A DNA stretch of 64,000 nt from Eledone cirrhosa (lineage: Eukaryota). Below, one piece after another: positions 12,391-57,809 of this stretch. The DNA lies in the NCBI GenBank assembly GCA_964016885.1, contig OZ024743.1, forward strand, positions 357,802,001 to 357,866,000. The letters are read 5' to 3'. The notes below the pieces were generated by a model. That model saw only the letters and a list, made by a program, of their open reading frames with translations, was not told the DNA's origin and made no database searches. The position numbers and the translations under genes were made by a program. The first letter of the stretch is position 1, and every line of letters begins with the position of its first letter.

Positions 12391-13720
12391 TATATATATA
12401 TATATATAATACCACTAACACCTCCGACCCCACGCACACGAACACACACACACACTTACAACACCCACTCTACACACCCTACCACCACTGACCCCCACTA
12501 ACAGCCGCATTTAACCCTTTCCCCACAACCAGTATACTAACACCCACTAACACCCCCTTCACCACACACACACTCATCCAAACACGCACACACACACCAG
12601 TACACTACACTCCCTCTACCGGCCCCCACACCTTTCTCTCCCCCTCCTCCTCCCCGCTCCACACACACCCCTTCACATACACACACACATCCCACTAACA
12701 CCTCTACTAATACATACCCCCTCCCTCTCCACCTTTCATACCTACCCATCCTCTCCCCTGTCCACCGCACCTCCGCACATACTGACACACCGACTTTCTC
12801 CACCTGCCATTCTCCCCGACTGCTGCTATGCCCTGAATCTCTGACCACCTCTCCGCACACACAGACACACAACCCTCCTCCTGCCTTGACCCTCTGACCA
12901 CTTCCTGTTCCGCGCGCACTCCACATCTCCCCTCTTCCGACCAACCCAACCACGGATTACACACATTGGACTTCGCTCCCACGAATCAACTCCATCACAA
13001 GGAAATTACCCGGCATCCCACCACATTCTCTACGGAACTACCTTAGGAACTTACCCACGGACATACACTAAAAAAAAAATGTTTTCCCACACGCCACCTA
13101 CATCCACAATACGTATAAACACCACACACACGTGCGTACCACCACATATTTACACACTCAGCCTCCGGAATCCTCTCCCCCTTCCCCCACCCCTCTGAGC
13201 CCTTCCCTATCCACACACGCACACACACACCGACCTACACCCCACCCCACACACACACCTTTTCATGAACATGCAACCCCGTTCTTCCCCCAACTCTCAC
13301 ATTCACATACACACACACACACACGTACACCTACACACACACACACCACCTTCAGCCCACCCCGCTCCGACACCCGCCTCCCTCTCCCCACTCCACCCGC
13401 CACCACCCCAACACGCGCCACACCCTTCCACCACTTGTTTAACTTCATGTTTTTTTTTATTTTTATTATGCTTTTATATTTATTTTCATTTGTACCGTTT
13501 CCTCTCACCCCCTTTTTTCTAAATGTCTGCCCCCACTCCCCTACACACCCTTGGAACTCTCTTCCCACACACTTTTCGCCTGAAGAAGGGCTTAAGCCCG
13601 AAACGCCCCCCCCCCTCTCAAGAGCGTGAAACTAACTAATAAACCTTTGTTATACTGCCTCTCTGTTTTGTTCCCGTTCAATTTTTCACTATATATATAT
13701 ATATATATATATATATATAT

Positions 13721-14285
13721 AAGTATGTACACGTACACACATATATGCATACCGACGTACAGTAGTATGTATACATATATATATACATACATGCACACAT
13801 ATATATATGCACGTATGGATTCACCGAATAATTATTATAATGCTCGGTGTGTTTGTAAACAAGCATCCCGTATTAAGCCGTAGTGTCTAGCAACCACCGT
13901 TGCTCGTTTGTTCAACACTGACATAATATGCATAAGGTAAGTATATACGTTCAACAATCTGGCAGGAAGGTATACGTTGCTGACGATAGCTAACAAGCTT
14001 GAAACTAGTACAGCGTTCCTTTGTCAGTGTTGAACAAACGAGCAACGGTGGTTGCTAGACACTACGGCTTAATACGGGATGTTTGTTTACAAACACACCG
14101 AGCATTATAATAAATATTCGGTGAATCCATACGTGCATATATATATATGTGTGCATGTATGTATATATATGTATACATACTACTGTACGTCGGTATGCAT
14201 ATATGTGTGTACGTGTACATACTTATATTTACGTAACAGCCGTACTAAGAGTGGGAAATGAAATATCGTTTCATTTTTTTCGTTT
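13721..14285. mobile_element. Fold-back element between (TA)n runs; arms ~13721-13923 and ~14022-14228
   Basis: ~200-bp near-perfect inverted repeat; hammerhead in the spacer; ~55-nt unpaired extension on the right. Confidence 0.85.
13975..14015 (+). ncRNA. Minimal type-I hammerhead ribozyme
   Basis: CGTTG-CTGACGA-tAGCTaacaAGCTt-GAAA-CTA-GTA-CAGCG; stems I and II pair; stem III is the palindrome ACTAGT. Confidence 0.8.
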
Positions 14286-14304
14286 ATATATATATATATA
14301 TATA

Positions 14305-15192
14305 TCGAGGATAAGTGCGACGACGTACGTCTCGGGGAAACTCTAGGCATCGAGGAGGACAAACTGACCAGTCAGTTCAGGAGGCCTTTCCGTCAGTTCA
14401 GGAGGACTTTCCGTCCAGGGCCTATGGATAACTTCCAGAGGTCTCTGGCCTGGCAGTGATACCGAGGAGCTCTACCAGTTCGAGACAAAATCTACAGGTA
14501 CGGATTCCCTGGCAGAGATCCTGCCAAAAGGACCTGTCCAAGATGCGAGCAGGACATCGAAACCGTTCTGCACGCAATTGTTCAGTGCTCAGGGGTGACC
14601 GACCTGTGGAATTATGTCGAATAGCTACTGTCAGGTGTGGGACGCATCCAGTTGTCAACCGAGTCCATCGTGAGGATCACCCCGCCGCCGTCATTTAAGA
14701 ATGATGGAGAGGCGGTTTTCCTCTGCCTGGTGTCTATGGCGAAAGAGGTAATATGGTGGACGAGGTTAAAAGGACTGAGGGAAAACACCTTTCTCTCCGG
14801 ACAACCACTCATCCCCTTCTTTAAGTACCACTTCAGAAGGAAAGTGGGAGTTTGTCCCAGTAAATTCGCTGAAAGGTTGGTGAATGTGGCAAAAATGGCC
14901 CGAGTGAATTGGCCGTCTCTGTATATAAACCTGTAGGTTGAGGAAGATAAACAGAGGGAAGACGGGAACACCTACAAAACGTGTTCCTGGTGTTGAGGGT
15001 TGTTCTATCCACGGGGTGTAAAACAACCCTGAAGTAACGTTCCCCCCTATTGGGGATTTCAATTGTTATTTTATTATATATAGTTTATTGTTTTTTATTA
15101 ATGTTAAAGTTATATGATTTTTATGTAAAATCCCCGCCGTCACGTCTTGTAATGTCCCACTTTTGTACGCCCCTGTGACAAATAGAGAAAGA
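14305..15192 (+). mobile_element. 5'-truncated Tx1 fragment
   Basis: ORF2 C-terminus (ITPPPSFKNDGEAVFLCLV..WWTRLKGL) and 3'UTR ending in TATC. Confidence 0.88.
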
Positions 15193-15416
15193 TATCTATC
15201 TATCTATCTCTCTATATAAATATTACGTTTAAAAAGCTTGACAAATTGAAAATTGCGGAAGGAAAAACCCAATATACAATACCAAAAACAACAAAAGAAC
15301 TAATCAGGTTGGCCACAGACAAAGCTTCGATTTTACTAAGCTTCCACCTGTATAAATATATATATATATATATACAATATATTAATAAATGGAAACTATA
15401 TTTATAAAACCATATT

Positions 15417-15482
15417 TATTTTATTATATATATTTCAAGAGCAACCAAGGCAAATTATGGTGCGCTTTCATCAGATAAAATA
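15417..15482 (-). ncRNA. Minimal hammerhead ribozyme motif
   Basis: Minus strand reads TATTTTAT-CTGATGA-stem II-GAAA-TATAT-ATA-ATAAAATA. Confidence 0.65.
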
Positions 15483-15625
15483 CAGATTTGTTTTATAAAT
15501 AAATATTGACATACCCGGAAAAAAGACAACCATAACGGTTGGAGGTTCCTGGATATATATATATATATATATATATATATATATATATATATATATATAT
15601 ATATATATATATATATATATATATA

Positions 15626-55229: not shown

Positions 55230-55565
55230 AAGGCGCATGGCTTAGTGGTTAGAGCATTGGGCTTGCAATTGAAAGGTTGTGAGTTCGTTTCTCGGACCGG
55301 GTGATGCGTTGTGTCCTTGAGCAAGACACTTTATTTCACGTTGCTCCAGTTTACTCAGTTGTAGAAATGAGTTGCGACGTCACTGGTGCCAAGCCGTACC
55401 GGCCATTGCCTTTGCCTTGGACAACATCGGTGGCGTGGAGAGGGGAGGCTGGTATGTATGGGTGACTGCTGGTCTTCCACAAAACACACCTTGCCCAGGC
55501 TTGTGCCTCCGAGGGAAACTTTCTAGGTGCTAAACCATGGTCATTCGTGACCGAGTGGGGCCATA
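55230..55565 (+). mobile_element. tRNA-headed SINE, family 2
   Basis: TGGCTTAGTGG A-box, GAGTTCG B-box, TGTGTCCTTGAGCAAGACACTT core. Confidence 0.85.
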
Positions 55566-56200
55566 GAAGATAGAACTTTGATGGAGTCTGCCAAGGAGAC
55601 TCATTAGCGTCATCGAGAAAGCTTCTACGTAGTCATTTGACTTGCTAGAAATAGCTGATAAATCTCTCCCTCTCACTTAACTAAGAAAATGAGATATTAT
55701 ATAATGTAATCTTACAGACCCTAAAAGAGATGGAATGGTCACGGCTACGATTCCTTTAATCATAAGTCTAGAAATATACGTGTATATATGAGAATAAAAC
55801 TTCTTTGGAATGATATGTTATTAATACTGGAAATATTGAACTATCCTAAATAGTATATGTGTCACGCCTACGAATCTACTGGGGAACGTTGCTTACTACC
55901 GATTCAACATATCCGGGAGCATCTGAATGTCCTAGGTTAAGAGTTCAGCACACACCCATACTACGCCACTCAGCTCACCGTTCTATACCCTAGTATTTAT
56001 GTATGTATATATTCTATGTTCTATTCTTGGAAAGGTGTTCAAGGATTCCTATGATTGCAGGTCATGTGGGACTATGTCTTCTTCGAAACAAGATGTAATT
56101 AATGTGCAAATCTTGAACGATTGTAAATAGATAATACTGTTCCTACTTAAAATGGTAATGAATGTTATAAACCCAGAAACTAAACCATATATATATAGAA

Positions 56201-57295
56201 CTAGCAGAGGTACCCGGCGTTGCTCGGGTATTAAATAGCAGTTGTGTATACCATTTATGTCAATACTTCAGTGCTACTTCGAAAACTATACTTTTACAAA
56301 ATCAACGGTTTTTTCAAAAGGATGTTCCTGCCCCCAAGAGTCCCCTACTCAATATGTGCCAATTCTGAGAGTTCACATTCATCTGTAGGACAAACGTAGC
56401 CCATGTGTCAAGTTTTGTGAAAATCGGTTGCGAACTACAGAAGTTATGACGTTTTGTTGCATTGCACTGCAGTGCTTCAGTCGACTCCAAGGAAGTGGTT
56501 AAAGGGGGGTTATCTGCAGGAAGGCTCTATAATCAATATCTGTAAAAATGAAAGTGCCCATGACCATCTGGAGTACATAAGTAACCTATGTCTTGAGTTT
56601 GGTGAAAATACTGTAGAAATGCATAAGGTTTATACACGCGCGCGCTCGTGTGTGTGTGTGTGTGTGTGTGTGTGTGTGTGTGTGTGTTTGTGGGGGGGGG
56701 TATGTATTTGTGTGTGCGTATGTATGTGTATGTCCGTCGGGGCATACGTATGTACTGGCCTAAATCTTCACTATTTACTTTTACTATTTTAATAACCTCT
56801 GTCATTTTCGTTTTCAATTTTATTTACATCATTCTTAAACTCCGGGGCTGGAAATCATTCTGTTATGTTAAATAGAATATTAGTCTAACGACTCGATTTA
56901 TACCATAAACTTGGTCTTGTCTTTGCATGAAATTGTTTCTCGCTCCACATAACTACGTATTATCCTCGCTTTTTTTCCCGTTTATTGCCAGGGAACGTCT
57001 TCACGAACCAAAATATCGTCTTCCTGATTTCGTTCGGTTGGAACGTTTCTCGAAATATTGACTTCTGCGTTCACAGATTACACTCAGTTCAATTTGAATG
57101 GGAAATTCCTGTTTCATCGATTTTCTCTGTAACCATGGAAGCTTGTACCCTAAAAGTCGACCCAACGCCTCTTCGGGTCATTCTGCATAACTGTGTAAAT
57201 TTTCGCTGCATTCCACCAAGCCGTTTCGACGTTTATCCGACTACACCCACTTATTTAAATATACAACGTCCGACCACTTCCAATTTATATAGTAA
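56201..57295 (-). mobile_element. Non-autonomous Helitron-like element, 5' end approximate
   Basis: Minus-strand 3' hairpin CCCGAGCAACGCCGGG followed by CTAG|T. Confidence 0.55.
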
Positions 57296-57432
57296 ATATA
57301 CTATCGTGTTTTCATATATATATATTATAATATAATAATGCAATATTTAATTCTAGTAGGTAAAAGCAAATACTTATAATTCTAATTCATAACACACATA
57401 CACACACACACATAGTTTTATATATATATATA

Positions 57433-57620
57433 TATAGGAAAATGTTCAAGACCCCGACGGCAGAGCTCAAGCTGTTTCGACGGCTATTTCTGGAGGCTCT
57501 GACGTCCAGAAATAGCCGTCGGGGTCTTGAACATTTTCCTATCACCACTCTAATACCCTAAGTATTGAGTACTCTGGTGCGTTATGGTCCACCTGGTTCC
57601 TTATCACACTTCCTTCGTTA
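57433..57620. mobile_element. Small nested fold-back between (TA)n runs
   Basis: Outer arms ATAGGAAAATGTTCAAGACCCCGACGGC and its reverse complement; inner hairpin CGACGGCTATTTCTGGA/TCCAGAAATAGCCGTCG. Confidence 0.75.
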
Positions 57621-57809
57621 TATATATATATATATATATATATATATATATATATATATTAGGTATATCTACATTATTCATCATCTATATTATTATATAT
57701 ACAAATATTACGTATATCGAAAATTATCGAAACGAAACATTGAGGGGATATGAAGTTCATAGAAACATGGGAAACTCAAATGGGAGAAATAGCTGTTAAT
57801 ATAGCTAAT

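Follow-up and report, generated by a model that had tools for sequence, protein, structure and literature searches.

Penelope-like elements with a C-terminal endonuclease (EN+) leave a characteristic anatomy in their host genomes: 5' truncation, partial tandems, an inverted 5'-truncated copy and a tail at one end that encodes the start of the reading frame, in (TA)n targets with short target duplications where these can be measured (PMC3846280, PMC8557442, PMC8969392; these and the other sources are cited for the accessible parts of their text). We analysed a 64,000-nt stretch of the genome of the octopus Eledone cirrhosa (contig OZ024743.1, positions 357,802,001 to 357,866,000; hereafter the window), in which an earlier reading of the letters, the original prediction, had noticed seven short fold-back elements, and found the same traits there. 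The seven sites are real, dense Penelope-type insertions whose anatomy is mostly known, two retrozyme families among them, and Penelope-type insertion is almost certainly the origin of the fold-backs. The two-armed architecture itself has been published (PMC3846280, PMC8557442, PMC4209133, PMC11167929). In contrast to the canonical descriptions, the pairing of ends was counted here and proved near-strict in eight families, and most copies are as short as miniature inverted-repeat transposable elements (MITEs).

Other described systems are also close. Metazoan Penelope elements carry minimal type I hammerheads with a short palindromic stem III, in many unrelated families per genome and with U3-A8 variants, just as we found; in that work opposite-strand hammerhead pairs 100-700 bp apart were ascribed to truncated elements (PMC4209133). 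The Hydra clade (PMC8557442) shares with four of our families (those of 16148, 41094, 57433 and 48657) the CxCX5C linker, the DKT motif, CxxC and CxH in the endonuclease, the lack of CCHH, the hammerheads and the (TA)n targets. It is described as ‘generally <3 kb’, whereas the 41094 unit is ~4.5 kb, and the cores here include U4C and U3-A8. Metazoan non-LTR (LTR, long terminal repeat) retrozymes resemble two of our elements in being low-GC tandem units without an open reading frame (ORF), each with one type I hammerhead, in dimers to long arrays that co-occur with Penelope elements (PMC7229834, bioRxiv 10.64898/2026.07.22.740005), and have been proposed to be non-autonomous Penelope derivatives (bioRxiv 10.64898/2026.07.22.740005). 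In contrast to those, our arrays have two arms and a pair of fixed ends in (TA)n; ‘inverted’ is absent from the main text of PMC7229834, and ‘tail’ from the accessible text of the preprint. Our 567-bp unit also lies above the published range of 150-450 bp, and circles and cleavage were shown for the published retrozymes, whereas ours are known from sequence alone. Finally, the PAc Poseidon protein of the green anole, a predicted dimer, cuts and extends both strands of an AT-rich target in vitro and starts on RNA at two sites separated by the tail, as in the mechanism proposed below; inverted products, non-autonomous templates and Hydra or Neptune proteins lie outside the scope of the accessible text of that work (PMC11167929).

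In literature searches that took in few subscription journals and no supplements, we found no two-armed retrozyme arrays with fixed ends, no near-strict pairing given as a count, and no report of U4C or U4A fixed in Penelope elements. As far as these searches reach, the families described here are new members of known groups.

Fold-back architecture and the pairing of fixed ends

The elements at 13721, 15626, 16148, 41094, 48847, 49203 and 57433 had been proposed to share one design, in which (TA)n encloses an arm, a spacer and an inverted arm, often with a one-sided extension. This design was present at all seven sites. The arms are 28-210 nt long with 95-100% complementarity (210, 167, 76, 151, 126 and 199 nt in six fold-backs and 28 nt in the seventh, at 57434/57515), (TA)n lies on both flanks of each, and all except 48847 carry the extension. 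Some extents needed correction: 49203 is larger than first described (49206-50271), and 16148 and 41094 have tails that extend to 16055 and 40927. The seven are also unrelated to one another, as had been claimed, since pairwise alignment of 12 window pieces gave a sole match, between 15417 and 16148 (84% over 160 nt). The label ‘short non-coding’ had to be given up for 15626, 16148, 41094 and 57433, whose longer genomic copies enter RT/GIY-YIG frames (RT, reverse transcriptase) upstream.

Each piece was searched in its own 3.0-Gb genome and the best 25-30 loci per search were retrieved, a sample skewed to close, complete copies. First-look candidates, which are not copy numbers, came to 1,083-3,246 for eight of ten window pieces, to 43 for 48847 and to 1,993 for 48657. 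Every family examined has two fixed 3' ends, one short (untailed) and one tailed, with tails of 41-171 nt across families, and a variable inner junction. As we read them, the window's insertions and their ribozymes are:

12407-13690, plus strand: Neptune-like family, 3' end; at 13580 a hammerhead core with stem II, no valid stem I or III
13722-14286, plus strand: ORF-less tandem hammerhead unit of 422 bp, inserted with two arms; untailed arm 13722-13923 (minus), tailed arm (plus) to 14286; tail 59 nt
13974-14016, plus strand: type I hammerhead with canonical core, palindromic 6-nt stem III and 6-bp stem I; predicted cut after 14010
15370-15552, minus strand: single untailed 3' end, a relative of the 16148 family; hammerhead core 15474
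15626-16031: autonomous RT/GIY-YIG Penelope-like family, two-armed truncated end; tailed arm 15626-15832 (minus), untailed arm 15833-16031 (plus); tail 41 nt; U4C hammerhead cores 15818 (minus) and 15879 (plus)
16055-16414: two-armed truncated end, Hydra-type; tailed arm 16055-16325 (minus, core 16247), untailed arm 16339-16414 (plus); tail 92 nt
40927-41486: two-armed truncated end, Hydra-type; tailed arm 40927-41301 (minus), untailed arm 41298-41486 (plus); tail 171 nt; U4C cores 41176 (minus) and 41405 (plus)
42077-44587: broken, 5'-truncated Neptune-like Penelope copy; long untailed arm 42077-44396 (minus), short tailed arm 44397-44587 (plus)
47669-48799, plus strand: single untailed 3' end of 1.13 kb from another Hydra-type family; U4C core 48664
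48847-49131: diverged fold-back, both arms untailed, no hammerhead; initiator-tRNA-like piece in the spacer
49206-50271: ORF-less tandem hammerhead unit of 567 bp, inserted with two arms; tailed arm 49206-49538 (minus), untailed arm of ~1.3 units 49541-50271 (plus)
49955-50114, plus strand: type I hammerhead with U3-A8 core at 49963, 8-bp stem I and predicted 20-bp stem III; predicted cut after 50106
57434-57618: very short two-armed end, Hydra-type; untailed arm minus, tailed arm plus; tail 80 nt; half of a U3-A8 hammerhead

Next to these, 16540-16760 holds an inverted, diverged tail (73%) of a 16148-related family beside a long TA run. The segment 50297-50375 is an exact inverted copy (79/79 nt) of 48733-48811, the end of the 48657 element; because copies of that family are only ~93% alike, this identity suggests a local inverted duplication beside the 49203 insertion. 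Locus L328 has a similar mirror pair adjoining a 49203 array.

We called ends against a natural reference of each family's short (U) and tailed (T) end. Automatic calls paired one T with one U in 137 of 150 two-armed insertions from eight families; hand reading of the remainder added three T+U pairs; in four others U is joined by a tail that is shortened or diverged, and six are real exceptions. Where insertions had not been chosen for the tail, the pairing held in 56 of 64 (p ~3e-10 against 50:50), although three of these rows had been retrieved via tailed matches. For 49203, where the query favoured neither end, it held in 11 of 11. For 13721 we excluded 108 automatic rows, in which a TA-rich segment had matched microsatellites, and read the family by hand (T+U in 8 of 9 insertions with both ends visible).

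The target is equally regular. TATATA follows the end in 39 of 39-40 cases in the 15626 family and in 29/29 in the 49203 family, compared to 5.6% of random window positions. Target duplications are illegible in pure TA, and of 33 insertions just three could be used: L327, L134 and, within a repeat, L171. At the first two, where the target is not pure TA, direct repeats of 12 and 14 nt, respectively, flank the whole two-armed unit, and both arms therefore represent one event. In 47 T+U insertions with long references, the untailed arm extended more than 20 nt further 5' in 17, the tailed arm was the longer in 10, and the two were equal within 20 nt in 20; since the untailed arm so often reaches further, neither arm is a plain copy of the other. 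At the inner junctions, 22 of 49 overlapped by two or more bases.

Parent families, retrozymes and their hammerheads

Most fold-backs of the window are ordinary Penelope remnants. The proposal to cluster the families and match them to autonomous Penelope-like elements bore fruit, with parent frames found for 15626, 16148, 41094, 57433, 48657 and 13580; all six are, by sequence, 5'-truncated ends of such families, mostly Hydra-type. Among the copies we found RT followed by GIY-YIG in one frame, pseudo-LTR tandems, a one-tailed inverted copy and a hammerhead in the terminal repeat, as in EN+ elements generally. L324, a member of the 15626 family whose arms both exceed 2 kb, runs into a frame with RVT_1 (E 1.6e-12) and weak GIY-YIG (E 0.005, below cut-off). 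Upstream of the 41094 and 16148 ends, at distances of ~1.7 and ~1.3 kb, are frames that contain a CxCX5C linker (L321, L322, L316). A Hydra-type frame gave a same-strand match upstream in 16/25 loci of the 57433 family and 5/25 of the 48657 family. By eye, the Hydra motifs (CxCX5C, CxxC and CxH in the endonuclease, no CCHH) are present in the translations of L321, L322, L316, L359 and L387, and the DKT motif in L321 only, which also has RWR at the likely place of the clade's N-terminal RWK. In L321 the 41094 unit measures ~4.5 kb from tail to tail, with a 3' untranslated region (UTR) of ~1.7 kb, larger than the typical Hydra size of <3 kb; the copy starts at the tail, passes through the frame and stops at the next tail, and is thus a partial tandem. 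For the 13580 family, copy L279 has a Neptune-like GIY-YIG remnant upstream.

The RT/GIY-YIG copy at 42077-44587 shows the inverted-terminus design and the hammerhead core (42305) that had been ascribed to it. Its ~2.3-kb untailed arm contains RT, a zinc-finger linker, GIY-YIG, the 3' UTR and the core, and its tailed arm is 190 nt long, with a 46-nt tail that encodes the start of the reading frame. It had also been put forward as the driver of the seven fold-backs, a role that it does not fit: the copy (RVT_1 E 0.001) is broken, with six stops and a frame change relative to an intact 1217-aa relative (72-80% identity), and its 3' end gave no alignment with any of the seven. The 1217-aa frame (L312:3051-6701) gave no Pfam match and contains YVDD and YIGET motifs by eye; a related young family has many intact frames among 150 matches scored. 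The full-size version of the two-armed design is an inverted pair of tandem arrays with the 1217-aa frame, one side untailed and the other tailed, and tandem units of ~4.1 kb occur at C1:307.33 Mb. For comparison with the Neptune clade, described by a CX2-5CxxC linker plus CCHH inside GIY-YIG, a C-x4-C-x2-C linker and two cysteines with histidines can be made out by eye in P0001, and only a remnant is available for 13580. The closest named homolog of a young relative of the window RT is an Octopus vulgaris protein (69% identity). The genome thus appears to encode candidate enzymes. The 42077-44587 copy is not among them, and five listed pieces have putative frames of their own. The 1217-aa frame also has, ahead of the RT, an asparagine-rich stretch ~160 aa long that resembles the N-rich inserts described for rotifer Penelope elements (PMC3846280).

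The elements at 13721 and 49203 are of another kind. By the sequence criteria of PMC7229834 and bioRxiv 10.64898/2026.07.22.740005 they are very likely retrozymes, which bears out the suggestion that retrozyme-like non-autonomous units are present among the seven (perhaps with the relatives of 48847 as well). The tandem periods are 422-424 bp for 13721 and 567 bp for 49203, the GC fractions of the units 0.39 and 0.35 (retrozyme limit 45%), and the longest stop-free stretches 53 and 47 codons, respectively. Cores are intact in 50/50 units of 13721 (canonical) and 29/30 of 49203 (U3-A8). The two end sites of the 49203 family are 73 nt apart. Its hammerhead is predicted to fold as a three-way junction (z -2.5) and, unlike the motifs of PMC4209133, has a long stem III, with which a monomer is predicted to be able to fold. 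As a circle, the 422-bp unit is predicted to be stable (-137 kcal/mol, compared to -94 +/- 7 in 20 base shuffles) and the 567-bp unit marginal (-128 compared to -115 +/- 7, likewise 20). Among public sequencing runs, none listed as RNA contained the 13721 unit, and two runs from other organisms, presumed to be RNA, gave no match to 49203; neither outcome bears on expression.

The arrays are scattered over many chromosomes, each with two opposed arms, an arbitrary phase at the junction and the family's two fixed ends. Among 31 units of 13721 from eight loci, we counted 1.8 substitutions within an arm, 1.2 between opposite arms and 5.4 between insertions. Because opposite arms differ less than separate insertions do, one template per insertion, whether circle or homogeneous multimer, fits the data for the 422-bp unit better than purely local satellite growth would. 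Very long arrays, such as one of ~35 kb on C12 with more diverged units, have probably expanded in place as well. In tandem copies of the 13721 unit (e.g. L043), ~20 nt upstream of window position 13924, an octamer-like ATGCAAAT occurs in 17/29 units and a variant, ATGCATAT, in 9/29, right after the tailed end. The octamer resembles the snRNA-type (small nuclear RNA) promoters that reportedly drive newt satellite 2.

The fold-back at 48847 is a decayed exception among the seven. Its relatives have a hammerhead and a tail of ~73 nt or more; the 1.5 kb upstream of 25 of them contained no reading frame, and L400 has a partial tandem of ~440 bp. Judged from these copies, the family may be an older retrozyme. 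We considered kinship between the 49203 unit and the 48847 relatives and rejected it, because the score of 53 exceeded the shuffle maximum of 51 in one comparison and fell below it in three others. The tRNA-like piece in the spacer (48944-49008) is 83-85% identical to nearby tRNA genes, and a template switch to a tRNA is a possible origin. A tandem tRNA gene array with a period of ~1.55 kb starts ~10 kb from 48847 (59645, 61176, 63477) and runs on past the window end.

To find hammerheads we began with a strict descriptor, which gave only 2 complete motifs and was blind to U4C, U3-A8 and U-U-closed stems. A wider, hand-written type I descriptor, allowing any base at position 4 and a U3-A8 pair, gave 10 motifs in the window, whereas 200 local dinucleotide shuffles averaged 0.13 and never exceeded 2. 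With Rfam (E<=1), the window gave tRNAs and hairpin look-alikes alone and no hammerhead family. The four elements said to carry hammerheads with a short palindromic stem III were verified: 13721 (core 13980), 15626 (15818, 15879), 16148 (16247) and 41094 (41176, 41405). Three further motifs had been proposed, of which those at 15417 (core 15474) and 48657 (core 48664) are complete, while 13580 has a core and stem II with stems I and III that fail the descriptor. In the 42305 core, stem I is reduced to one base pair, and 57433 keeps only the 3' half of the ribozyme of its family. Two hammerheads had been overlooked: the U3-A8 motif at 49955-50114 and a U4A motif at 39081.

Several cores depart from the canonical CUGAnGA in a way that is fixed within their families. 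Those of 15626, 41094 and 48657 read CCGAnGA (U4C), and this variant was found in 37/41 anchored cores of the 15626 family (with 2 further CC-type mutants), 33/36 of the 41094 family and 24/26 of the 48657 family. U4A was present in 12/12 incidental copies of the 39081 family and in 24/26 pattern matches of a second sample, many of which lie inside a composite element; U3-A8 was present in 17/19 cores of the 57433 family. Control cores with U4G or A6C gave no motif in 1.3 Mb of loci. U3-A8 is already published for Penelope hammerheads; in contrast, U4C (three families) and U4A (one), fixed here, are not described in the accessible text of that work (PMC4209133). In a viroid, U4C lowered activity in vitro and infection was still possible (PMC3088659). 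The U4C and U4A motifs may have decayed in a founder, may be attenuated, or may be assisted by protein in the manner of the anole element, and they offer natural test cases for the need for hammerhead cleavage.

The U4A hammerhead itself spans 39020-39145. Some copies of its family are Penelope-type ends, short or tailed, in TA; the window copy and many of the best matches lie inside a composite element with a fixed start ~430 nt upstream and a common downstream sequence, which we take to be possibly Helitron-like. In the flanks of loci L001-L348, 1.3 Mb of repeat-selected sequence, we counted 96 distinct canonical-core motif strings with differing palindromic stems III, and the number of hammerhead families in the genome is probably much above the window set.

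How the two arms may arise

We consider it likely that each fold-back is a single insertion into TA of two outward-facing, 5'-shortened copies of a 3' end, made by a Penelope-like RT/endonuclease that would prime on both cut DNA ends. Both strands at the TA repeat would be nicked by the endonuclease. Two RT subunits would begin on the element RNA, at positions separated by the length of a tail, and both cDNAs would grow inward and then join, often via a few shared bases. Short remnants of autonomous elements would arise where both copies stop early. The two retrozymes likely depend on such an enzyme in trans. Their template would probably be a circular or multimeric RNA processed by the hammerhead, and this would supply both tandem arms at once; for a circular template in particular we regard the chances as even. 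Tentatively, and with the odds against so specific a combination, a dimeric Penelope enzyme might copy octopus retrozymes from small circles of RNA, priming twice on one template, once from each cut end of a TA repeat. Each insertion would then be a record of rolling-circle reverse transcription, its one end short and its other end tailed, while in parallel the fixed U4C and U4A cores of four families would serve as ribozymes that are attenuated or depend on protein and are adjusted to this cycle.

Several points weigh against the two-ended insertion. Pairs were counted only where both arms reach the short site, and the loci are best matches rather than a random sample. Six of the 150 insertions are exceptions: U+U in 48847 and L262, T+T in L079 and in the two mirror copies of L328, and tailed plus partial in L204. 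In addition, L037 ends at neither fixed site. The arms that are equal within 20 nt (20/47) are equally predicted by fold-back copying; two enzymes stopping at one RNA end would also produce them. Later deletion across the centre of a palindrome can also make arms unequal. Among the retrieved loci, no autonomous family shared sequence with the 13721 or 49203 unit. The tails here, at 41-171 nt, exceed the published 30-40 bp, and the anole element could insert in vitro with no need for hammerhead cleavage (PMC11167929).

For the second arm, two independent primings seem to us somewhat the better explanation. The other route, which we rate as possible and clearly less probable, needs one priming: nascent DNA or antisense RNA would fold back and prime itself, a self-priming that has been proposed (PMC3846280), and the endonuclease would resolve the hairpin one tail-length short of the first end, a resolution of the tail suggested in PMC8557442. 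The tailed-plus-untailed rule follows from this route too, and so do variants common to both arms, the short palindromes and snap-back fill-ins at junctions, and the equal arms, which include long ones (2465/2470, 432/432 and 400/400 nt). It would need later deletions wherever the untailed arm is the longer, young copies included (2118 vs 233 and 2328 vs 924 nt), and again at 42077-44587, where the tail is absent from the long arm. In L326 and L327, unit-private variants are not mirrored between arms, a weak point, as later mutation blurs it, and in vitro the anole protein starts at two RNA sites and extends both strands (PMC11167929). At L002, L008 (upstream of the match to the 16148 family) and L321:1734-3680 we noticed tailed arms directly next to inverted sequence from another hammerhead or Hydra-type family. 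If arms from two different RNAs are real, they would favour two separate primings.

For the retrozymes we also weighed local growth, in which the 422- and 567-bp arrays would be satellites expanded by unequal crossing-over from one Penelope end and RNA multimers or circles would matter little for length, as sketched in bioRxiv 10.64898/2026.07.22.740005. Concerted evolution would likewise make an array homogeneous, the alternating two-unit pattern in one arm of L326 fits local block duplication, and the long array on C12 suits this idea. As a general account it is improbable, given that the dispersed arrays are two-armed, meet at an arbitrary phase and keep both fixed ends (8/9 in 13721, 11/11 in 49203), that the 12-nt duplication flanks L327, and that insertion-specific variants are common to both arms.

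The original prediction had all seven elements as dedicated non-autonomous ribozyme RNAs moved by the neighbouring RT/GIY-YIG element into (TA)n. In its favour are the common design and target, the presence of a hammerhead in the family of each of the seven, and the two or perhaps three elements that are ORF-less units, and Penelope-type retro-insertion into (TA)n is a part that stood. As a whole it is very improbable, because the set consists mostly of truncated 3' ends of several autonomous families: 15626, 16148, 41094 and 57433 continue into RT/GIY-YIG frames of their own, and the neighbouring copy is broken and has no end sequence in common with them. MITE-like DNA transposons, or palindromes made by assembly or amplification, would account for short elements with inverted ends, TA flanks and high copy number but have next to no probability, since the same design spans 127 bp to ~5 kb and ~17 kb, lengths vary widely within each family where MITEs are uniform with symmetric terminal inverted repeats, the fixed arm and spacer boundaries named beforehand as the mark of true MITEs were not seen, the ends are asymmetric by a fixed tail, the arms differ by up to 5%, and contigs from public runs (kind not recorded, possibly the same sample) show many different arm-to-arm joints for these families, though none of the listed contigs spans a whole window element.

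That most of these fold-backs are Penelope remnants is mainly an annotation matter; in the main text of a recent Octopus vulgaris repeat annotation, Penelope elements and MITEs are mentioned and ribozymes or retrozymes never (PMC13282606). The origin of inverted one-tailed Penelope insertions and the movement of retrozymes are both stated as open in the accessible literature (PMC8557442, PMC11167929, bioRxiv 10.64898/2026.07.22.740005). This genome has thousands of insertions whose ends follow a rule that can be counted, young families in which frames are intact, and two retrozymes whose start sites are defined, so that twin priming versus fold-back, and circle versus satellite growth, become directly testable.

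Other repeats in the window

Two copies of a two-frame LINE (long interspersed nuclear element), presumably L1/Tx1-like as judged by eye, occupy 5454-10764 and 17110-22405; the first has an unbroken 1167-aa endonuclease-RT frame (7261-10764) with a zinc-knuckle frame upstream. At 22959-27083, a large inverted repeat with 208-nt arms (98%) 3.7 kb apart, and with further nested arms, surrounds LINE-like fragments and has no TA-run flanks. By eye, we take 51065-51652 to be a fragment of a Mariner-like transposase.

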